A stretch of DNA of 64,000 nt from a virus (taxonomy: Duplodnaviria; Caudoviricetes): positions 1 to 64,000 of the IMG/VR virus record IMGVR_UViG_3300021254_000033; one strand, 5' to 3'. The position numbers and the translations under genes were made by a program. Shown in pieces: positions 1-8,318 of the stretch (its first letter is position 1; every line of letters begins with the position of its first letter). The notes below the pieces were generated by a model. The model was given only the letters and a program-made list of their open reading frames with translations. It had not been told where the DNA came from and did no database searches.

Positions 1-6
1 CTATAA

Positions 7-369
7 CTAACCCGCGGTGTATCCCTTCTGGGTTCCCTTCTTCGGAACCTTCACGTCCTGCACACAAGCCCAGCCCTTCGCTACTGCCTGTCTCAGGAGA
101 GCACTCGCAGCCTGTACCTTAACTTCGGCGCCTTCCAGTTCGGTCAGCTCGGCCGCAATGACGGTAGCAGTCTTCGGTTCTGCGGTCAGCATATCGGCTA
201 CCTGGCGAATCCGCGGTTCCTTCTCCTTAGCCTTGATAGCTGCCTTCTCTTTTCTCTTCTCATTCGTCGCGTCCATCTGCATCAGCTGTCTTTCAGCGTA
301 TTCTCTCATTTCGTTGGTGATGGTTTCTTCGTTGATGATGGCGTTGTAGAATTCTCTCATAGTCTTCAT
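7..369 (-). CDS. Small protein, N-terminal helical/coiled region plus C-terminal winged-HTH-like domain; paralog of 4399..4743
   Basis: RBS AGAAAGAGG upstream; shares REFY.AI.N, MDA.NE.RK.K and VK(V/I)PK.G motifs with 4399..4743. Confidence 0.85.
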   Translation of the reverse strand: MKTMREFYNAIINEETITNEMREYAERQLMQMDATNEKRKEKAAIKAKEKEPRIRQVADMLTAEPKTATVIAAELTELEGAEVKVQAASALLRQAVAKGWACVQDVKVPKKGTQKGYTAG

Positions 370-455
370 ATTGTTCCTCTTTCTCCGACAGTGAAGCCGT
401 CGGCGCTACTTTTTTACTTGAGAGAGTCAGTATCTCTCTCTCACTTTCTATATAT

Positions 456-484
456 AGTATACTAAAGATTTAATGAAAAATAAA
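456..484 (-). promoter_or_regulatory. Probable sigmaA promoter (weak -35)
   Basis: -10 TATACT followed by ATATATAGAAA as in other promoters of this phage; -35 only TTTATT. Confidence 0.5.
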
Positions 485-786
485 ATTTTGGAGCTGTTTT
501 TTAGAATTTGATTTTCGGAAAGTTTTGCAGCTGCGGGAAGGAAAAATTTGGGAATTCTGGGAAACGCAGCTGCAGCTGTTTTTTTGACAAAAATAAAAAT
601 TTGCAGCCGCTCAAGATTTGCAGCTGCTACGAAAATTTGTAGCTGTTTTAAAATTTGATTTCTGGTAAATTTTGGGCGCCCGGGCACTTCGTGCACGACC
701 ATGATCTATGATCTAGGAAGATTTCGTGGAAAGAAATTCCTGGAAAATTCTGGTTGGAATAAAATTTGAAAAATGGGAAAATTTGG
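482..786. repeat. Degenerate direct repeats AAAATTT(T)GCAGCTG in a non-coding gap
   Basis: Copies near 482, 519, 597, 613, 632; GCAGCTGCAGCTG at 566; further AAAATTTG units to 786. Confidence 0.7.
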
Positions 787-822
787 CGGCCCGGGCAAAG
801 TTAGTTTTGGGCAACACTAAGT

Positions 823-853
823 AAAAAAAAGAAGACGATTATTAATCGTCTTC
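823..853 (-). terminator. Intrinsic terminator
   Basis: GAAGACGATT-3-AATCGTCTTC stem, T8 tail on minus strand. Confidence 0.85.
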
Positions 854-997
854 CCATTCGTCGAAGTTTGGGTCTTCCCATGGATAACTGTCTTCATCCA
901 CTCCCAGACCGCACCAGTAACGACAATCATCGCCACCGATAGCATTATATGGACATTCGCCGTAATCACATGGAGTATCTTTCTTACCATACATCAT
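842..997 (-). CDS. 51 aa Cys-rich acidic peptide (MMYGKKDTPCDYGECPYNAIGGDDCRYWCGLG...), below the ORF-track cutoff
   Basis: Manual translation; start overlaps the end of 984..1139; stop lies in the terminator. Confidence 0.7.
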   Translation of the reverse strand: MMYGKKDTPCDYGECPYNAIGGDDCRYWCGLGVDEDSYPWEDPNFDEWEDD

Positions 998-1139
998 CTT
1001 CATCTTCCTCTCTTTCTACACTATAGTAATAATAATCTGTGCATTCATCTTCGGGGTCGCCAATTACACATTCATAAGTTACGTCTACGCAGTAAGGACA
1101 TTCTATATCTGCGGTGGGACAGTAGTATGTTTTTCTCAT
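984..1139 (-). CDS. 51 aa Cys-rich acidic peptide (MRKTYYCPTADIECPYCVDVTYECVIGDPEDEC...)
   Basis: Manual translation; RBS AAGGAAAGGAG and consensus promoter directly upstream. Confidence 0.8.
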   Translation of the reverse strand: MRKTYYCPTADIECPYCVDVTYECVIGDPEDECTDYYYYSVEREEDEDDVW

Positions 1140-1172
1140 TTGAACTATCTCCTTTCCTTATCTTGTATACAT

Positions 1173-1201
1173 AGTATAACACAAAACATTATGATTGTCA
1201 A
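1173..1201 (-). promoter_or_regulatory. sigmaA promoter
   Basis: TTGACA-17-TATACT with extended TG. Confidence 0.9.
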
Positions 1202-1262
1202 CCCCTTTTAAAAATTTTTTTTTCGCGCCCGGGTGGCGGTTAGCCTCGACTAACTCTCGTTC

Positions 1263-1284
1263 AAAAAAAAGAGGGTCACCCCTC
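1263..1284 (-). terminator. Intrinsic terminator
   Basis: GAGGG-GTGA-CCCTC plus T8. Confidence 0.8.
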
Positions 1285-1635
1285 TCTTTCTGCCTTGGCT
1301 TTTGCTTTGGCTTCCCGCATTTTACGGTCACGCTCCTGCTTCTTCGCCTTGGCTTCGGCGTTGGCTTTCGCCTTTTCCTCTTTCGCTTTCAGTTTGAGGG
1401 CGTAGTCCTCAGCCATAGCGTAACCATCATAGGGGTCGCCATCACGAGAACCGATAGGCATCTTGAAGGTGAGGACGAGGAAATCTTCTTCTCCATCCGC
1501 ACGTACTACGGGAATAGCATATTCGTTGGAGCCTACCAACAGAACTTCTTCCCCTCTTTCCTCAAGGAAGTTGCCGATAATCAGCATGAATTGGGAACGC
1601 ATATTATCTCTTGCCTGTTTTGTGGATTTTGCCAT
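1276..1635 (-). CDS. Hypothetical protein with charged C-terminal tail; paralog of 3066..3422
   Basis: Shared K.P.GSRDG(D/E)PYDGY.MAE(D/E)Y motif; RBS AAGGAAAGGAG. Confidence 0.9.
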   Translation of the reverse strand: MAKSTKQARDNMRSQFMLIIGNFLEERGEEVLLVGSNEYAIPVVRADGEEDFLVLTFKMPIGSRDGDPYDGYAMAEDYALKLKAKEEKAKANAEAKAKKQERDRKMREAKAKAKAEREG

Positions 1636-1668
1636 AGTGTTTATCTCCTTTCCTTATCTTGTATACAC

Positions 1669-1697
1669 AGTATAACATAGTATTATAAAAAAGTCAA
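1669..1697 (-). promoter_or_regulatory. sigmaA promoter
   Basis: TTGACT-17-TATACT; 36 bp around -10/RBS nearly identical to the 1173 promoter. Confidence 0.9.
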
Positions 1698-1799
1698 CCC
1701 TTTTTCCGAAAAAAGTTTAAGTATTTTTTCTGCATATATGTGATCTATGATCGTAGACGGCGGCCCGGGCGCCACCTACGAAGAAAGTCGCATATGGGT

Positions 1800-2444
1800 T
1801 TATACCCATAAACGACCATCAACTTCTTCGTTATTCTCAAAACAAAAACGCATGATTTCCTTTTCAATCAGAACATCTTCCAGTCCTTTGTGTTCTTCAA
1901 CAAAATTATTATCGCCAGAAATGAATCTGTAAAGAACTTCTGCGGTGTACTTCCGACAGTTTCGGGAAGTTAAATAGTTATTCTCATGACAGAACTTTCC
2001 ATACTCATCATTTTTTTTCAAAACTTTTCTTGCCATCTTCAGAGTATCCCACCATTCAACTCCATAGGGGAGGAAGAAACGATATTTTGAAGAGGTCAAA
2101 AAGCGTTGAGTAAGATTCAAAGAGTGATAATCAAATTTTGCATTATGAGCAAAAACTTTTTTGATATTGTACTGTTTACAAATATCATAGATGATAAAGC
2201 GAATTGTCTTAAATCTCCGAAGCAAGCGTTTTCCCTCTTTGATTTCTTCCCAATACTGAGGAATTTTTTCAGAGTAGTAGGCGCTACTCATCAGCTCCTT
2301 ATCTAAAAATACGTCAGCCACAACGTAGCTATGACTTTCATAGACGTTAGCGTTTTTGTCAATAACTGCAAAACCGATGTCATAACAAATAGGGTCATCA
2401 AGAGAATTAGTTGTTTCAGTGTCAATGATTAAGTATTTTTCCAT
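1800..2444 (-). CDS. DEDDh 3'-5' exonuclease family protein
   Basis: Motifs IIDTETT, AHNAKFD, WDTL, HKGLEDV. Confidence 0.9.
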   Translation of the reverse strand: MEKYLIIDTETTNSLDDPICYDIGFAVIDKNANVYESHSYVVADVFLDKELMSSAYYSEKIPQYWEEIKEGKRLLRRFKTIRFIIYDICKQYNIKKVFAHNAKFDYHSLNLTQRFLTSSKYRFFLPYGVEWWDTLKMARKVLKKNDEYGKFCHENNYLTSRNCRKYTAEVLYRFISGDNNFVEEHKGLEDVLIEKEIMRFCFENNEEVDGRLWV

Positions 2445-2477
2445 TTTTTCGTTTTCCTTTCTTTATCTTATGTATAC

Positions 2478-2506
2478 ATTATAATATATAGAAAGAGAAA
2501 AGTCAA
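2478..2506 (-). promoter_or_regulatory. sigmaA promoter
   Basis: TTGACT-17-TATAAT. Confidence 0.9.
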
Positions 2507-2568
2507 CCCCTTTTTTCAAGTATTTAAAAAAAATATATGCGACCCATCCCGCACATCGGCGCCCGGGC

Positions 2569-2592
2569 AAAAGGTTGCCTAATCAGACAACC
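2569..2592 (-). terminator. Intrinsic terminator
   Basis: GGTTGTCT-GATT-AGGCAACC (one G:U) plus TTTT. Confidence 0.7.
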
Positions 2593-2758
2593 AATCAACT
2601 CCATCATATTTATCTATTACTTCTTCATCCATAAGTGCAGTGCAGTAAAAGTCAAAAGGACAACTTGAACACGCATTCCATTCATCATTTTCATGACACG
2701 CCTCTTTTATTAGTTTCATTCCCTGTATCATTTTTTCTTGCCAAGTCTTTTTAAACAT
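2579..2758 (-). CDS. 59 aa Cys-cluster protein (C-x8-C-x2-CPF-x3-C)
   Basis: Manual translation MFKKTWQEKMIQGMKLIKEACHENDEWNACSSCPFDFYCTALM...; RBS GGAGAAAG. Confidence 0.75.
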   Translation of the reverse strand: MFKKTWQEKMIQGMKLIKEACHENDEWNACSSCPFDFYCTALMDEEVIDKYDGVDWLSD

Positions 2759-2786
2759 CTTTCTTTCTCCTTTTTATTGTTTTACT

Positions 2787-2951
2787 TTATAAAATCTTAA
2801 TAAGAATATAATACATTACCAGTATCTCAAACCATCCGCATAAAATAAACCAACGACCAATTCGTTCAAAAAAATTACAGTTTTGATACACATACTCTTT
2901 TCCGTAATTATGTATATCCATGAAATATAGAATAATGGTTAACAAGAACAT
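2787..2951 (-). CDS. 54 aa hydrophobic, probably membrane peptide (start reassigned to MFLLTII)
   Basis: RBS AAAGGAG before ATG at 2951; the track's 3008 start lies inside the promoter. Confidence 0.7.
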   Translation of the reverse strand: MFLLTIILYFMDIHNYGKEYVYQNCNFFERIGRWFILCGWFEILVMYYILIKIL

Positions 2952-2979
2952 TTTTTTTCTCCTTTCTTTTTCTATATAT

Positions 2980-3008
2980 AATATACCACATTTAATTGTC
3001 CTTGTCAA
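2980..3008 (-). promoter_or_regulatory. sigmaA promoter
   Basis: TTGACA-17-TATATT, extended TG. Confidence 0.85.
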
Positions 3009-3055
3009 CCCCTTTTAAAAAAATTTTCTGGCGCCCGGTCCGCCCAATAAATGGA

Positions 3056-3080
3056 AAACGAGAGATTAATTCTCTCGTTT
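3056..3080 (-). terminator. Hairpin/terminator overlapping stop codon
   Basis: AAACGAGAGA-5-TCTCTCGTTT. Confidence 0.65.
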
Positions 3081-3422
3081 CTTTTTCATTTCCTGTTTTT
3101 TTTCTCTAATTTTTTTATCCCTTTCAACCTTTTTTCTTTTTGCCTCTTCTTTCTCCTTTCTCTTTTCCTCTTTTGTTTTTAACTTAATCTGATATTCTTC
3201 TGCCATAGAATATCCATCGTAAGGTTCGCCATCTCTTGAACCTGTTGGAACCTTTACAACAATCTGAATAAACTTTTCGTTCTGTTCAGAGTCAACACAT
3301 GGAATCGCAATCTCGTTAGTGCCTGTGCGAAGAACCTCGTCGTCATTTTCTAACAGTTCGATAATTTTAGTCAGATACTCTTCACGAAGAGTATCATTTA
3401 ATTTCTTCTGAGAAACTGCCAT
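3066..3422 (-). CDS. Hypothetical protein; paralog of 1276..1635
   Basis: VKVPTGSRDGEPYDGYSMAEEY motif; K/E-rich tail. Confidence 0.9.
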   Translation of the reverse strand: MAVSQKKLNDTLREEYLTKIIELLENDDEVLRTGTNEIAIPCVDSEQNEKFIQIVVKVPTGSRDGEPYDGYSMAEEYQIKLKTKEEKRKEKEEAKRKKVERDKKIREKKQEMKKKREN

Positions 3423-3436
3423 TTTAACACTCCTTT

Positions 3437-3685
3437 CTAACGTTCGTTTAACTGTTCATAAAGTTTGGAAATAGTTGTTAAAAGTACCTGTTTTCTTTTG
3501 GTTTCAAAAGCGATACCATTTTCAATCCATTCTTCAATGGGTTCTCCATTTCTTTGACATCTTTTGTATTCTGTTTTATACCATTTCAAATCTTCTTCTG
3601 TATCATTCAGATATGATTTTACATAATCATAAATACAAGATAAAGTTTCTGCCTCAATAATTACGTTATCAAATTCAGTGACCAT
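3437..3685 (-). CDS. Hypothetical protein (82 aa)
   Basis: RBS AAGGAAGGAG; promoter upstream. Confidence 0.8.
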   Translation of the reverse strand: MVTEFDNVIIEAETLSCIYDYVKSYLNDTEEDLKWYKTEYKRCQRNGEPIEEWIENGIAFETKRKQVLLTTISKLYEQLNER

Positions 3686-3714
3686 TTTTTTCTCCTTCCT
3701 TATTTTCTATATAA

Positions 3715-3743
3715 ATTGTACCACAGAATAAAAGGAATGTCAA
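3715..3743 (-). promoter_or_regulatory. sigmaA promoter
   Basis: TTGACA-17-TACAAT, extended TG. Confidence 0.85.
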
Positions 3744-3898
3744 CTATTTTTTTTATTTTTTCTAAAAAAATTATAACAAAAATTTTTTAAAAAATCAAAT
3801 AATTTTTTCTTTAATACTTTACTATAGTGAAGTGCGCGCCCGGGCAGTTAGCAAGAGACAACTCTCTTGCTAACCGTCTTAGAAGGAAAGGAAATTAT

Positions 3899-4225
3899 TT
3901 AATTTTCTTCAATGTTTTCTATATCATAAATATCATCAAAACATTCTCTACTTGGTGGCGTCATTCCTGACCAGAATTTTCTTTCTGCTTCCTCTTTTGT
4001 TTTTGCTTTAATTTTACAATAACCAGAGAAATCAATATACCATTCTTTTTCCTCTAAATAATCATACTCTTTTAATGCGTCGAGATTGTTTACAAGTGCA
4101 TATTCTACAATATCTTTTGCTGTAGTCCACGCAATATAATTTTCTTGACTACAATTATCTATTCTTGCATTTAAGATATGAATTAAAGTGTCAACAACTT
4201 CGGAAGAGATTCTTGTATACTTCAT
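3899..4225 (-). CDS. Hypothetical protein (start probably MKYTR)
   Basis: RBS AAAGGA; promoter upstream. Confidence 0.8.
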   Translation of the reverse strand: MKYTRISSEVVDTLIHILNARIDNCSQENYIAWTTAKDIVEYALVNNLDALKEYDYLEEKEWYIDFSGYCKIKAKTKEEAERKFWSGMTPPSRECFDDIYDIENIEEN

Positions 4226-4263
4226 AATTATCATTCCTTTCTTTTTCCTCTTTGATTATCTAT

Positions 4264-4292
4264 AGTATACCACAGTAAAATCATTTTGTCAA
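4264..4292 (-). promoter_or_regulatory. sigmaA promoter
   Basis: TTGACA-17-TATACT, extended TG. Confidence 0.9.
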
Positions 4293-4356
4293 TAGAAAAA
4301 ATAATGTATTTTATTTCCATTGCGTCCGGGCGGGTTAGCGACGGCTAACTCAACCT

Positions 4357-4387
4357 AAAAAAAGAAAGGACGCATATAGCGTCCTTT
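4357..4387 (-). terminator. Intrinsic terminator
   Basis: AAAGGACGC-5-GCGTCCTTT plus T-tract. Confidence 0.85.
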
Positions 4388-4398
4388 TTCCCGAAAGA

Positions 4399-4743
4399 CT
4401 ACACAATCTTGTAAGCCTTTCTCTTTCCGACTTTCGGAATCTTCACTTCTTCAACTGTCAGTTTTCCTTCAGCAACCAACTGACGAGCAAGAGCACCTGC
4501 CTTGTTGTGAGTAATATCGAGAGCCAAACCGAGGTCAGTTTCCGTCATAGCGTTACCTACTTCAGTGAGGTGAGTGAGGATTGCTTCCTTGATAGGAGCG
4601 TTTTCGATAGCAGTCTTGGAAGGCTTAGCCTTTCTTGCTTCGTTGCGAGCATCCATCTTAGCGATTGCTTCAGCTGCGAAAGCCATAACTTCTTCGTTCA
4701 TTGTGCCATTAACGATTGCGGTGTAGAATTCTCTCTGTAACAT
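4399..4743 (-). CDS. Winged-HTH-like DNA-binding protein; paralog of 7..369
   Basis: IL..L.E.G..MT..DL...L......L..EGKL wHTH pattern; RBS AAAGGAAAAGG. Confidence 0.85.
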   Translation of the reverse strand: MLQREFYTAIVNGTMNEEVMAFAAEAIAKMDARNEARKAKPSKTAIENAPIKEAILTHLTEVGNAMTETDLGLALDITHNKAGALARQLVAEGKLTVEEVKIPKVGKRKAYKIV

Positions 4744-4787
4744 AGTTCTTACCTTTTCCTTTCTGTTTTTCTTTATCTTACATACTT

Positions 4788-4816
4788 ATTATAACATGGA
4801 TTCGGAAGTTTGTCAA
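4788..4816 (-). promoter_or_regulatory. sigmaA promoter
   Basis: TTGACA-17-TATAAT, extended TG. Confidence 0.9.
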
Positions 4817-4882
4817 CCCTTTTTTTAATTTTTTTATTTTTTTCTTTCGGCTGACGTTTTCCTTTCCTTACCTTGTATATAT

Positions 4883-4911
4883 AATATACCACAATTTTAT
4901 AAATTCGTCAA
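4883..4911 (-). promoter_or_regulatory. Second tandem sigmaA promoter with its own RBS but no ORF
   Basis: TTGACG-17-TATATT followed by AAGGAAAGGAAAACG with no start codon. Confidence 0.75.
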
Positions 4912-5026
4912 CCCTTTTTCAGAAAAAAATTTAAGTATTTTTTTTACGCATATGTGATCTATAAATGTAGAACGCGCCGCCCGGGCACAACGGTTAGTAT
5001 AAACTAACCGCCAACCTTTTACTAAA

Positions 5027-5452
5027 TTAAAATGTTTTTAATACTTCAAGAATATTGTTTACATCATACGCACCCTCACCCCATTCTTTTCTATTCTTTT
5101 CTTCGTCATCAAAAAGGATTCCTTTTCTTCCGATATGTTTCGGAGTGCCATATTCAATAATATCAATGTGGTCAAATCTAACACTTCTTAAATGAATCTG
5201 AAGCCATTCAATTTTTGCTTTTGCAACAGCTCTCTGATATTGAGGTGTAGCCCCTTTACTAAGCCAGCTGACAATACCTAATTTATATCCTTCTCTCTGT
5301 AATCTATTCAGGATTCTTGCGAGAGCTGCTAATCTCAGGAGCGGAGCCGCTTCTGCATACGGTGTAGCATCTTCAGCCATCAATTTTTCCAACCAGTTCG
5401 GAACCCCATATAAATCTGCGATTGTGCCATCCATATCAAACCAAATTGTCAT
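5027..5452 (-). CDS. HAD-family 5'(3')-deoxyribonucleotidase-like protein
   Basis: FDMDGTIADLY motif I, LFDD motif IV. Confidence 0.85.
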   Translation of the reverse strand: MTIWFDMDGTIADLYGVPNWLEKLMAEDATPYAEAAPLLRLAALARILNRLQREGYKLGIVSWLSKGATPQYQRAVAKAKIEWLQIHLRSVRFDHIDIIEYGTPKHIGRKGILFDDEEKNRKEWGEGAYDVNNILEVLKTF

Positions 5453-5482
5453 TTCCTTTATCTCCTTTCCTTTTCTATATAT

Positions 5483-5510
5483 ATTATACCATTACTAAAA
5501 GAAAAGTCAA
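5483..5510 (-). promoter_or_regulatory. sigmaA promoter
   Basis: TTGACT-16-TATAAT. Confidence 0.8.
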
Positions 5511-5609
5511 TACTTTTTTAGAAAGTTTTTCAGAAAATTTTTCTGACTATTCTATGATCGTCGACCACTGCGCCCGGGTGGAACGGTTAGCAAAGCCTAA
5601 CTTTTGTAT

Positions 5610-5637
5610 AAAAAAAATAGACGGCGCGCCGTCTATT
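5610..5637 (-). terminator. Intrinsic terminator
   Basis: AATAGACGG-CGCG-CCGTCTATT plus T8. Confidence 0.85.
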
Positions 5638-5791
5638 CCTCTTCGTCAGATAAAATCCAGTATCTGACATAATATCCATGTCTACCATTAATGAATTTTT
5701 CTGCACCCTCTTTCGTATTAAAATGTTTTATAACAGTTTGTCCTCTCATGACATCATAACCCTTGGCGATATTTTCCAGAATTTTTTCCAT
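5633..5791 (-). CDS. 52 aa hypothetical protein (MEKILENIAKGYDVMRG...)
   Basis: Manual translation; RBS GGAGG. Confidence 0.75.
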   Translation of the reverse strand: MEKILENIAKGYDVMRGQTVIKHFNTKEGAEKFINGRHGYYVRYWILSDEEE

Positions 5792-5803
5792 TATTTTTTC
5801 CTC

Positions 5804-5950
5804 CTACTGAAAAAGTCTAATAAAGATTTCAAAAAAGTTTCCTGTCCAGTACACTGGATTATCAGAAAGATTTTTGGAACAGATTTCCATCCAACTAATT
5901 CCCACCCATACTAAAAAGGCTGTACTTGTTATTGTTAAAAAATTCCGCAT
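5804..5950 (-). CDS. 48 aa membrane peptide (MRNFLTITSTAFLVWVGISWMEI...)
   Basis: Manual translation; hydrophobic N-terminal helix; RBS AGGGGG. Confidence 0.7.
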   Translation of the reverse strand: MRNFLTITSTAFLVWVGISWMEICSKNLSDNPVYWTGNFFEIFIRLFQ

Positions 5951-5955
5951 TATTT

Positions 5956-6126
5956 TTACCCCCTAACATTTTCGAAAATAATTCCGTTATTGATTTCTTT
6001 TTGGGCAATCTGTGCGACTTTATTTTCGCTATATGCACCATAGAACCAAAATTCTCCAGCAACTTCTCTCGCTACGATGAACCTATATTCTCTTGCATAT
6101 TCGGGAAGATTATTGATTTTCTTCAT
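5956..6126 (-). CDS. 56 aa hypothetical protein (MKKINNLPEYAREYRFIVAREVAGEFWFYGAY...)
   Basis: Manual translation; RBS AAGGAAAGG; promoter upstream. Confidence 0.8.
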   Translation of the reverse strand: MKKINNLPEYAREYRFIVAREVAGEFWFYGAYSENKVAQIAQKEINNGIIFENVRG

Positions 6127-6162
6127 TGTTCTGTTCCTTGCCTTTCCTTATTTTCTATAATT

Positions 6163-6191
6163 ATTTTACCACTTTCTTTTCGGGAAGTCAA
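6163..6191 (-). promoter_or_regulatory. sigmaA promoter
   Basis: TTGACT-17-TAAAAT, extended TG. Confidence 0.85.
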
Positions 6192-6334
6192 CCTTTTTTC
6201 TAAAGTTTTTCGGGAAAATTTTCGAAAATTTTTTCGAGTATCGGGATCCGACCGAAATATTTTCTGCGACGCCCGGGCAAAAGGAAGTTATTCCCATAAC
6301 TTTTTTGAGAACCTTCCTTTGACTTATTAATTTT

Positions 6335-6568
6335 CTAAAACATATCTTGGTCAACTACGAAATAATATTCTACCTCGGGAGCAACACAACCATTAAACCA
6401 TTTATTGGGTTTTTCTTTTGTGAGTCTTTCGGCTTCCTTTTCTGCGTCGACTCTGTTCTTTCCTGTGTAGTATGCGAGAAATTCGTCACATCTTCTTTCG
6501 TATTTTGTACCCTCGTTATATACTGTCGGAGTCTTTGCCTTATAACAAATTGCTAACATTTTTTCCAA
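6335..6568 (-). CDS. Hypothetical protein (77 aa)
   Basis: RBS GAAAGGAG. Confidence 0.8.
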   Translation of the reverse strand: MEKMLAICYKAKTPTVYNEGTKYERRCDEFLAYYTGKNRVDAEKEAERLTKEKPNKWFNGCVAPEVEYYFVVDQDMF

Positions 6569-6614
6569 CTCCTTTCTTCTCCTTTTTATTTTTCTTCCTC
6601 TTCTTTCTATAATT

Positions 6615-6643
6615 ATTATACTATAACTTTATATAAAATGCAA
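6615..6643 (-). promoter_or_regulatory. sigmaA promoter
   Basis: TTGCAT-17-TATAAT. Confidence 0.8.
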
Positions 6644-6728
6644 GTATTTTTTTATAATAAAAAGAAAATTATTTAATCAAATTAAAATTAGTCAATGCTA
6701 ACTGCCCGGGCAAAAGCATAAACGAAAC

Positions 6729-6752
6729 GAAGAGAGACTTTAGTCTCTCTTC
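6729..6752 (-). terminator. Hairpin/terminator at stop codon
   Basis: GAAGAGAGACT/AGTCTCTCTTC inverted repeat. Confidence 0.7.
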
Positions 6753-7207
6753 ATCATTCTCATCAGTGTCTTTTCATTTGTAAAGGTTGCTGCAGTGTAC
6801 TTAATCTGATATGCAATTCCGTCCACTGTGATATCTCCGTCTTCGGTGAAGGGGACGTTATCCTTTTCCCATTCCTGTCCAAAGTATTCAGTTACCAGTT
6901 TTTCGAAGACTTCACCTTTATTATATTTTGTATTCTTTACTAATTCTTCAAAGAATCTTGCGGAGCAGAGGATTGTGTATCCGTTCTGCTTTAACAGTTC
7001 TCTTTGTGCCTTGTTCGGTTTGAATCTGAGACTGTAGCCCTGACCTCTGCCTGCCTTATCCAGCTTGCAAACGTAGGGGAGAACGCTGTCATCAGCCTTC
7101 ACGAGGTAGATATTATCATTCTCTTCGAAGCCGAAGAGGTATTCGCCTGTGTATGCGAGTTCCATATATGTTTCAATCATCTTCTTGAACAGTTCTAAAT
7201 TCTTCAT
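6740..7207 (-). CDS. Putative PD-(D/E)XK-like nuclease-fold protein
   Basis: C-terminal NKGEVFE...GDITVDGIAYQIK pattern (E...D...QxK). Confidence 0.6.
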   Translation of the reverse strand: MKNLELFKKMIETYMELAYTGEYLFGFEENDNIYLVKADDSVLPYVCKLDKAGRGQGYSLRFKPNKAQRELLKQNGYTILCSARFFEELVKNTKYNKGEVFEKLVTEYFGQEWEKDNVPFTEDGDITVDGIAYQIKYTAATFTNEKTLMRMMKRD

Positions 7208-7237
7208 TTTTGTTCTCCTTTCCTTCTTTCTGTAATC

Positions 7238-7266
7238 ATTGTATCATATCTGCCGGTCGCTGTCAA
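7238..7266 (-). promoter_or_regulatory. sigmaA promoter
   Basis: TTGACA-17-TACAAT, extended TG. Confidence 0.9.
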
Positions 7267-7430
7267 TACTTTTTTTAAAATTTTTTTCAGCTTCAGCTCC
7301 CTCATATTTCCAGTAAATATTTTCCTGCTTTGCAGCCGGGTGATTAGTTTCCATGATCTTCCAGCTCCAGCTCCTGTGTATTTCCAGATTCTTCCAAAGG
7401 ATCTGAAGGCATGGGAATCAGGGTAGGGGA

Positions 7431-7928
7431 TTACTCCCCTGCCCTTTCGTCTAACCATGTCAGCATCTTTCCAGATGTTTTCTTAAACTTGATTTTGTAA
7501 CAGGTCTTTCCGGATTCTTTATTCCATCCAGCCCACTCTGTTACAAACTCTCTGAATTCTGTAGCGTTCATCTCATAGATACTTGCTACGCCGTCGATGA
7601 TTGCCACATATGCCCATCTTGTAGAATGTACTCTGTCGAAGTACTCAGCCAACAGGCTTTCCATGTTTTCAGCGGTCGGCTCATCTCTGTACAGACAAGC
7701 AAGCGACGCACCGGAGCTTTTAACACTTATTCCCAGCTCTTCAATATCCGAACCCTTATCAAATGCGATGTGGTCCGTGTCGAATTTGAAACCGTAGCCA
7801 TAGAATTCCTGAGCGTAGCATTCCGCAAGATTGCCACCGTTTCCGATAGCTTTTCCTATTTGATACTTATTCCCCTTACCCTCAAGACGGGTGAACGTGG
7901 CGCCTGTAGTGTGATAAAATTTTAACAT
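7431..7928 (-). CDS. Putative PD-(D/E)XK-like protein, apparent circular permutant of 6740..7207
   Basis: N-terminal NGGNLAE...SDIEELGISVK pattern; C-terminal YKIKFK matches YSLRFK of the neighbour's N-terminus. Confidence 0.6.
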   Translation of the reverse strand: MLKFYHTTGATFTRLEGKGNKYQIGKAIGNGGNLAECYAQEFYGYGFKFDTDHIAFDKGSDIEELGISVKSSGASLACLYRDEPTAENMESLLAEYFDRVHSTRWAYVAIIDGVASIYEMNATEFREFVTEWAGWNKESGKTCYKIKFKKTSGKMLTWLDERAGE

Positions 7929-7958
7929 TGTTTTTTCTCCTTTCCTACTTCTCCATCT

Positions 7959-7988
7959 ATTCTATCACACTCAACAAGAAAAGTACAA
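7959..7988 (-). promoter_or_regulatory. Probable sigmaA promoter
   Basis: TTGTAC-18-TAGAAT. Confidence 0.55.
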
Positions 7989-8220
7989 TCAAATTTTCTT
8001 ATGACGTCATAAAAATCTTTGATGGGGGATCATCAAAAGAAAACCTACTAAAAAAATAAAACATACCACCCTAAAATTATTTTCGCCTTTTTCTACAAAT
8101 GATCACCCTTACATATGTATTACTTTTTCAATATATATGTAAGATACATATATGCGACGATGGGGGTACATTTTAGGTTTTTCGCATGGTAAATCCTGGA
8201 AATCGTACGGGCCTGGAATT

Positions 8221-8262
8221 TTCGTACTCTGAAATAATTTTTTCGTACTCTGAAATAATTTT
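8221..8262. repeat. Perfect 21 bp tandem repeat x2 (TTCGTACTCTGAAATAATTTT)
   Basis: Units 8221-8241 and 8242-8262 are identical. Confidence 0.95.
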
Positions 8263-8289
8263 TCAACCTCTCTACCCCTCCAGGAAAAT

Positions 8290-8318
8290 TTGACACCCTT
8301 CCCAATCTGTGCTATACT
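8290..8318 (+). promoter_or_regulatory. sigmaA promoter, divergent from the cassette array
   Basis: TTGACA-17-TATACT, extended TG. Confidence 0.9.

Follow-up and report, generated by a model that had tools for sequence, protein, structure and literature searches.

The DNA examined here comprises positions 1 to 64,000 of a 78.6-kb viral contig in IMG/VR that derives from a gut/rumen phage (IMGVR_UViG_3300021254_000033), and by the window we mean this whole 64-kb stretch. Region 1-8300 is an array of small minus-strand genes, nearly all without known domains, and every gene of the array comes with a strong promoter of the sigma-70 type (TTGACA-17-TGnTATAAT), an A-rich stretch upstream of it and an RBS (ribosome-binding site) of Firmicutes type. 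Along transcription the elements follow one another in the order gene stop, intrinsic terminator, palindrome, GC octamer, A-rich tract and promoter. The octamer, GCCCGGGY, occurs 11 times in the contig, always within 1-6711. The subject of this report is the palindrome, GTTAG-N6-CTAAC, which we regard as a real, conserved and predicted protein-binding site, most likely that of a host regulator carried on phage DNA, and neither a recombinase core nor a terminator.

A preliminary description of this region reported four exact copies of the palindrome with four different spacers, and all four were recovered where they had been placed; 0.03 copies would be expected by chance in the 64-kb window, and none of 100 shuffles gave four. 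The first copy (GTTAG-CCTCGA-CTAAC, 1239-1254) lies, in the direction of minus-strand transcription, between the intrinsic terminator of gene 1276..1635(-), at 1262-1290 on the minus strand, and the octamer GCCCGGGT at 1227-1234; its centre is ~80 bp upstream of the start (minus-strand promoter 1201-1173, TTGACA-17-TGnTATACT). The second (GTTAG-CGACGG-CTAAC, 4334-4349) is preceded by the terminator at 4365-4387(-), and its centre is ~84 bp upstream of the start (promoter 4292-4264, minus strand). The third (GTTAG-TATAAA-CTAAC, 4993-5008), paired with the octamer at 4979-4986, comes after gene 5027..5452(-) without a separate terminator and can be extended to a 9-bp stem (4991-5010). The fourth (GTTAG-CAAAGC-CTAAC, 5586-5601) stands between the terminator at 5610-5640(-) and the octamer at 5572-5579. 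Similar minus-strand promoters lie at 4911-4883, 4816-4788 and 5510-5483. The terminators ahead of 1239, 4334 and 5586 measure -14.5 to -17 kcal/mol and each has a U tract, in agreement with the earlier view that the palindromes are not themselves the terminators.

When one mismatch was allowed, the sole additional copy in the 64 kb was the previously noted ATTAG-TCAATG-CTAAC at 6687-6702, which lies on the promoter side of the octamer at 6704-6711 and 1 bp from it. All five copies thus fall within 1-6711, in the early-gene array, 1-6 bp from an octamer or a one-mismatch octamer. A distance of 2-6 bp to a perfect GCCCGGGY had been proposed for each exact copy; this is correct at 1239 (4 bp), 4993 (6 bp) and 5586 (6 bp) but not at 4334, where the neighbour, 2 bp away, is the one-mismatch octamer GTCCGGGC (4324-4331). 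The spacer of the 6687 copy holds a -35-like TTGACT, which a promoter scan pairs with AATAAT 16 bp downstream (match 6695-6668, minus strand, the two together spanning 6668-6702); this copy may therefore overlap a -35 and occupy a repressing position.

Other suggested members of the family did not hold. The supposed half-site at 7-11 coincides in part with the stop codon that ends gene 7..369(-), and it reads GTTTAG-N12-CTAAAC, a non-canonical form, in the 98.5%-identical relative L038; comparison with L038 also indicated that the array ends at the window edge, with no run-off beyond the contig. Likewise, the degenerate forms at 800 (GTTAG-N12-CTAAG) and 6287 (GTTAT-N4-ATAAC) are outside the motif geometry. 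The hairpin with GTTAG/CTAAC ends at 3847-3874 does exist as a perfect 12-bp stem (-22 kcal/mol), 1 bp from an octamer, but its arms are 18 bp apart, a spacing found once against 413 cases at N6 in relatives, and for this reason we do not count it as a member of the motif. It is probably a transcript-end hairpin.

The motif search across related phages that the preliminary description called for was carried out on IMG/VR with the composite pattern CCCGGG-N1-9-GTTAG-N6-CTAAC, and returned at least 118 loci, most of them on 20-186 kb contigs from rumen and gut samples. The counts given here and below for relatives' loci cover ~956 kb and hold among the matches listed. One composite match per locus was the condition of selection, which leaves only ~295 further sites free of this bias. 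The 118 loci contain 413 copies of GTTAG-N6-CTAAC. Spacers of other lengths between 0 and 25 account for 0-2 copies each in nearly all cases (16 at N10), and a reversed control pattern for ~1-2. The spacer length is therefore strongly constrained, and both it and the arms are conserved, as anticipated. Aligned copies give a symmetric consensus, a-GTTAG-(t/c)-y-n-n-r-(a/g)-CTAAC-t, which can be summarised as R-GTTAG-Y-N4-R-CTAAC-Y. Single variants next to an octamer are transitions at the outer G/C positions, with almost invariant TTA/TAA cores, and only one of 21 two-mismatch variants carries a compensatory change. These features point to base-specific recognition of duplex DNA by a predicted symmetric dimer, the two half-sites being centred roughly a turn of the helix from each other, and not to a selected hairpin. 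The operator of a dimeric helix-turn-helix (HTH) protein was among the readings first suggested, and it is supported by the fixed 6-bp spacer, the uncompensated conservation of the arms, the symmetric flanks and the identity with a host feoAB operator described below.

In relatives the palindrome may flank the octamer from either side, 2-8 bp away (most often 3-4 bp), and for 115 of the 417 copies an octamer is missing within 60 bp. With respect to promoters, 322 copies precede a -35 hexamer and only 46 are downstream of a -10; in one sub-group (45 cases) exactly 9 bp separate the end of the palindrome from the -35 hexamer. Complete relatives restrict their copies to early arrays, with 6 to 34 per genome. 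In one relative, at L243 2100-3700 (G001:C1:108600-110200), ~30 copies of gttaGTTAGTCTTAACTAACtc are packed into 1.7 kb of almost gene-free DNA, interspersed with LexA-type boxes (GAAC-N4-GTTC), and this dense array flanks a 99-amino acid (aa) ORFan with its own promoter, for which neither a Pfam match nor a homolog in the contig under study was found.

Bacterial genomes were scanned for the octamer-palindrome composite pattern as well. Most matches were single chance hits in high-GC Actinobacteria; others lay on phage-like contigs in metagenome-assembled genomes (MAGs) of Clostridia, and a few were true chromosomal loci. In an isolate of Allofournierella massiliensis and in Acutalibacteraceae, Oscillospiraceae and Ruminococcus MAGs, two to three copies are placed directly downstream of a sigma-70 -10 element, and these chromosomal promoters drive either feoA-feoB or a DUF3793-flavodoxin operon. 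The flavodoxin operon of the Ruminococcus MAG, with three sites, ends in a gene for a 134-aa DtxR-family repressor (PF01325 and PF02742). A Lachnospiraceae MAG with 20 copies was considered as a possible regulon and discarded as noise, because nearly all of its copies lie inside coding sequence (GTTAGC...GCTAAC, from Leu-Ala-x-Ala-Asn-type codons).

A systematic test was then based on the feoA loci of 30 different genomes from the GTDB order to which Allofournierella belongs (NCBI family Oscillospiraceae). An exact copy was present within 1.5 kb of feoA in 22 of the 30 genomes, and in 25 when up to one mismatch was accepted. In total these loci hold 41 exact copies in 94.5 kb, where ~0.09 would be expected, and the reversed control gave five matches even with one mismatch allowed. 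The host copies overlap the transcription start, beginning 5-10 bp past the -10 element and lying close to the RBS, which is a repressing position. A two-domain DtxR-family protein is encoded in 37 of 41 genomes, mostly one per genome, and in at least nine it is encoded divergently from feoA, the palindromes lying between the two genes. The one sampled genome with feoA but without a DtxR-family gene (L268) also lacks the palindrome at feoA. These loci share with the operators of the DtxR/IdeR/MntR class both the position on a metal-uptake promoter and the linkage to a DtxR-family gene, and GTTAG-N6-CTAAC appears to be a conserved feoAB operator of Oscillospiraceae-type Clostridia (feoA loci L249-L278). 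In the literature searched on Ruminococcaceae and Faecalibacterium we found no specific description of this operator.

Flank preferences are shared by the host logo, R-GTTAG-Y-N4-R-CTAAC-Y, and that of the phages, the latter being more A/T-rich. Tandem host sites have a period of 34-35 bp, and the phages favour this same period together with 20 and 27-29 bp. As judged from sequence, the phage motif is a copy of the host operator of iron-uptake and iron-sparing genes. Because the same sequence sits on the feoAB promoters of the likely hosts, the phage palindrome is most likely a site for a host iron-sensing repressor. In its full form, the reading that we favour holds that the palindrome is a 16-18 bp duplex site for a dimeric HTH protein, matching the feoAB/flavodoxin operator, that the linked regulator is a two-domain member of the DtxR/MntR family, and that the metal-loaded host repressor binds the phage copies; taken as a whole, we consider this probable, with some reserve.

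During infection, the metal-loaded host repressor would occupy the phage copies. As these leave the RNA polymerase site uncovered, they would probably act as upstream sites or as roadblocks, that is, under iron sufficiency they may serve as activating or counter-silencing sites upstream of promoters, or as roadblocks behind terminators. Under either action the output of the early genes would track the iron status of the host. Direct contact with the polymerase is unlikely and looser mechanisms are more plausible, since the distance between site and promoter varies in the window (centres at ~-80 to -125).

Several observations weigh against this interpretation. The variable distance just mentioned is one of them. 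The regulator is assigned by gene linkage alone, so that Fur or another factor is possible; the evidence for the host is limited to Firmicutes-type promoters and to phage-like contigs in Acutalibacteraceae, Oscillospiraceae and Clostridia MAGs; and the N6 spacing of the half-sites is unlike that of the classical 19-bp DtxR box. Finally, none of the 41 host operators shows the tight pairing with the octamer (gap of 2-8 bp in the phages), and this pairing is left unexplained by a host repressor as well as by the other explanations considered here.

The classical DtxR/IdeR box has the consensus TTAGGTTAGCCTAACCTAA (PMC7762939). GTTAG/CTAAC corresponds to the inner half-site of this consensus and both elements are palindromic, but in the operators of DtxR, IdeR and MntR the half-sites are 1 bp apart, in contrast to the 6 bp seen here. 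As with those iron boxes, the bacterial site described here is found on iron-uptake promoters, over the start site and beside a DtxR-family gene, although the linked regulator is short (two domains, 125-147 aa) in comparison with the classical systems. A phage-borne gene under a host iron repressor has a precedent in corynephage beta, whose tox operator is bound by the DtxR protein of the host (PMC13001254). Unlike the single tox operator, the phages studied here carry 5 to 34 copies, which are paired with octamers and lie mostly upstream of promoters or behind terminators.

Sites placed in this way are also known for the family. DtxR-family proteins repress from sites that overlap the promoter; from sites that lie farther upstream, frequently as tandem copies, they activate or counteract silencing (PMC9132128; bioRxiv 10.1101/2024.06.28.601288). 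IdeR activates at four tandem boxes upstream of bfrB, the bfrA/bfrB pair being an example of upstream activation (PMC9132128), and MntR does so at several upstream sites of the exporter genes mneP and mneS (bioRxiv 10.1101/2024.06.28.601288). The phage copies likewise are several, well upstream and often in tandem; the targets of IdeR and MntR are host genes for metal storage and efflux, whereas here they would be early genes of the phage. A host regulator that gates a lytic programme according to host physiology is known from phi29 and Nf, lytic Bacillus phages which are reported to carry Spo0A boxes of the host at their early promoters (PMC2731898). Compared with those phages, a putative metal sensor would take the place of a master regulator of sporulation, far more copies are present, and the majority of them lie off the promoter.

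A further function can be envisaged for so many sites. On the reading that we favour, the copies on replicating phage DNA should also draw the repressor off the host iron-uptake promoters, and going further, the phage copies might jointly form a DNA sponge that titrates the host iron repressor off the feoAB and flavodoxin promoters, switching on iron uptake for the benefit of the phage. The numbers that bear on this idea are five copies in the window and up to 34 per genome in relatives. Placement just outside promoters and behind terminators would then spare the transcription of the phage itself, and the arrangement would be the natural counterpart of the laboratory Fur-titration assay. We regard such a sponge function as doubtful.

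Among the explanations that do without a host iron repressor, the best surviving one, which we nevertheless judge unlikely, is that the palindrome is bound by a dimeric DNA-binding protein encoded by the phage itself, for instance the multi-copy 114-aa winged-helix family, and that the match to the host is either mimicry, with the phage protein acting also on feoAB operators, or a coincidence. Cluster A mycobacteriophages have many copies of one repressor site, the stoperator, in short intergenic gaps throughout the genome; a stoperator differs from the palindrome studied here in being an asymmetric 13-mer aligned with the direction of transcription, and its ligand is the phage's own repressor. 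The gene for the 114-aa protein lies at 4402-4743(-) and has a 38%-identical paralog at 10-369(-). Its family has a C-terminal winged-helix domain predicted with confidence (pLDDT 86), and the best fold matches are to the pNOB8 centromere-binding protein, TFE-alpha and regulators of the MarR, PadR and ArsR types. Members occur in all five near-complete relatives tested, and about half of the homologs in relatives have the palindrome immediately downstream. Against this, all E-values of the fold search were above 1e-3, and the family shows no specific similarity to the DNA-binding domain of DtxR (hhalign probability 6.6%). The fold is generic, with weak matches of the MarR_2 and DnaD_N types, and the distribution of the family does not follow the number of sites; two relatives with 17-20 sites have just a distant, weak homolog located far from the arrays. 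Moreover, the host operator exists independently of phages. The product of 4402-4743(-) is a weak candidate for a protein that binds the palindrome. No DtxR gene above the Pfam cut-off was found in the phages tested.

Much less credible, and in our estimation very improbable, is the proposal that the palindrome works as a hairpin in RNA or single-stranded DNA, be it as a second terminator, a stabiliser of 3' ends or a processing site. The 22-nt site can indeed be folded (median of -6.1 kcal/mol over 417 copies), and the long stems at 4993 and 3847 follow genes with no other terminator. Yet the spacer can form Watson-Crick pairs in just 35-52% of the copies, the arms lack compensatory covariation, and a 5-bp stem with two G-C pairs and no U tract after it differs from an intrinsic terminator, true examples of which stand beside three copies. 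Three of the four exact copies are mostly untranscribed, because they lie behind a complete terminator, and the relatives' 45 copies located exactly 9 bp upstream of a -35 are outside any transcript.

The inverted arms around a variable 6-bp spacer had suggested the core of a tyrosine recombinase (dif- or lox-like), with cassettes exchanged by crossover inside the spacer, and the location of the site at cassette boundaries in an array that is mosaic among relatives would agree with this. In each arm, five bp are invariant and one or two further positions are weakly preferred, that is 5-7 conserved bp per arm, in place of the ~9-13-bp arms of tyrosine-recombinase core sites. To locate breakpoints we used all-against-all BLAST of the loci and took the interior ends of alignments of at least 90% identity. 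Of 229 such endpoints, 34 fell within 10 bp of an octamer, as against 1.7% of random positions, and eight within 10 bp of a palindrome centre. In relatives that are 88-97% identical the homology ends at the GC octamer and not inside N6; modules common to different phages are bounded by two octamers, and the palindrome with its spacer stays with the neighbouring module (for example in L067/L082, L025/L090 and L006/L105). The sole indel between the window and L038, 514 bp at 2764-2776 (L038 5469-5982), has its junction in the repeated RBS/5'-leader and not at an octamer or palindrome. These extra 514 bp of L038 comprise one promoter and a small gene, probably for a membrane protein. A gene of the Phage_integrase family (PF00589) was detected neither in this contig nor in five relatives of 90% completeness or more, and this contig gave no match to a resolvase (PF00239) either; host Xer enzymes are possible. 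Breakpoints at the octamer or the RBS repeat and the lack of an integrase gene therefore leave a crossover in N6 unsupported, and the junction element is the octamer, not the palindrome. With octamer-free copies, dense arrays of ~30 copies and the presence of the same site on host feoAB promoters also speaking against it, the recombinase-core reading is largely refuted and is the least credible of all those considered here.

The organization of the array recalls the PeSL cassettes of T4-type phages, arrays in which every small ORFan has its own strong sigma-70 promoter and ends in a stem-loop terminator, and which are shuffled among relatives at repeated boundary elements (PMC2839356, PMC4122927). 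The whole array studied here is alike, but its junction is the GC octamer, and the palindrome is neither terminator nor crossover point.

Other features of the array deserve mention. Pfam and PHROGs searches with 20 early proteins were nearly blank, the matches being an NT5C-like nucleotidase at 5030-5452(-) and phrog_20187 for 1803-2444(-), and a megablast of window positions 1-7000 against deposited phages returned no match. A second pair that looks paralogous, by eye only, is formed by 1279-1635(-) and 3069-3422(-). The non-coding DNA at 430-660, between genes 7..369(-) and 842..1003(-), holds ~8 TTTGCAGCTG-like units with CAGCTG cores; they look iteron-like and may be another protein-binding array or an origin. 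A third recurrent motif, GATCTATGATC-like, is located between octamer and promoter in several cassettes (699-717, 1741-1757, 4953-4969 and 5553-5565). At 4788-4911, the two complete promoters at 4911-4883 and 4816-4788 stand in tandem with only an RBS-like remnant between them, an arrangement probably left behind when a cassette was deleted.

When the window was scanned for regulatory boxes, none of the LexA, Rex, CIRCE, cre or parS type was detected. A weak CodY-like box, GTTTTTCAGAAAATT, with two mismatches to AATTTTCWGAAAATT, lies at 5525-5539 in the A/T-rich tract upstream of the promoter at 5510, and could be a chance occurrence in A/T-rich DNA. In the relatives L066 and L088 a canonical parS, TGTTTCACGTGAAACA, is found downstream of homologs of gene 1803-2444(-), and Gram-positive LexA boxes are present in L010, L101 and L104. 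Loci L005-L122 also contain CTTTA-N6-TAAAG, of the same 5-N6-5 geometry, beside octamers in 35 cases, and AGTTA-N4-TAACT and TGTGCA-type palindromes are recurrent in them too. The recurring palindrome types in relatives suggest several operator classes.

In summary, what had been a nameless repeat now offers a testable connection from uncultured phages of gut and rumen, a large family with contigs mostly of 20-186 kb, to iron physiology in the Clostridia that they infect, and the motif might serve as a marker for predicting the hosts of these phages. It also yields, from sequence alone, a probable operator of a DtxR-family regulator over feoAB and flavodoxin in Oscillospiraceae-type gut bacteria. 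Were the phage copies to act as decoys for the host repressor, they would represent an unusual form of host takeover, achieved by means of non-coding DNA instead of a protein.

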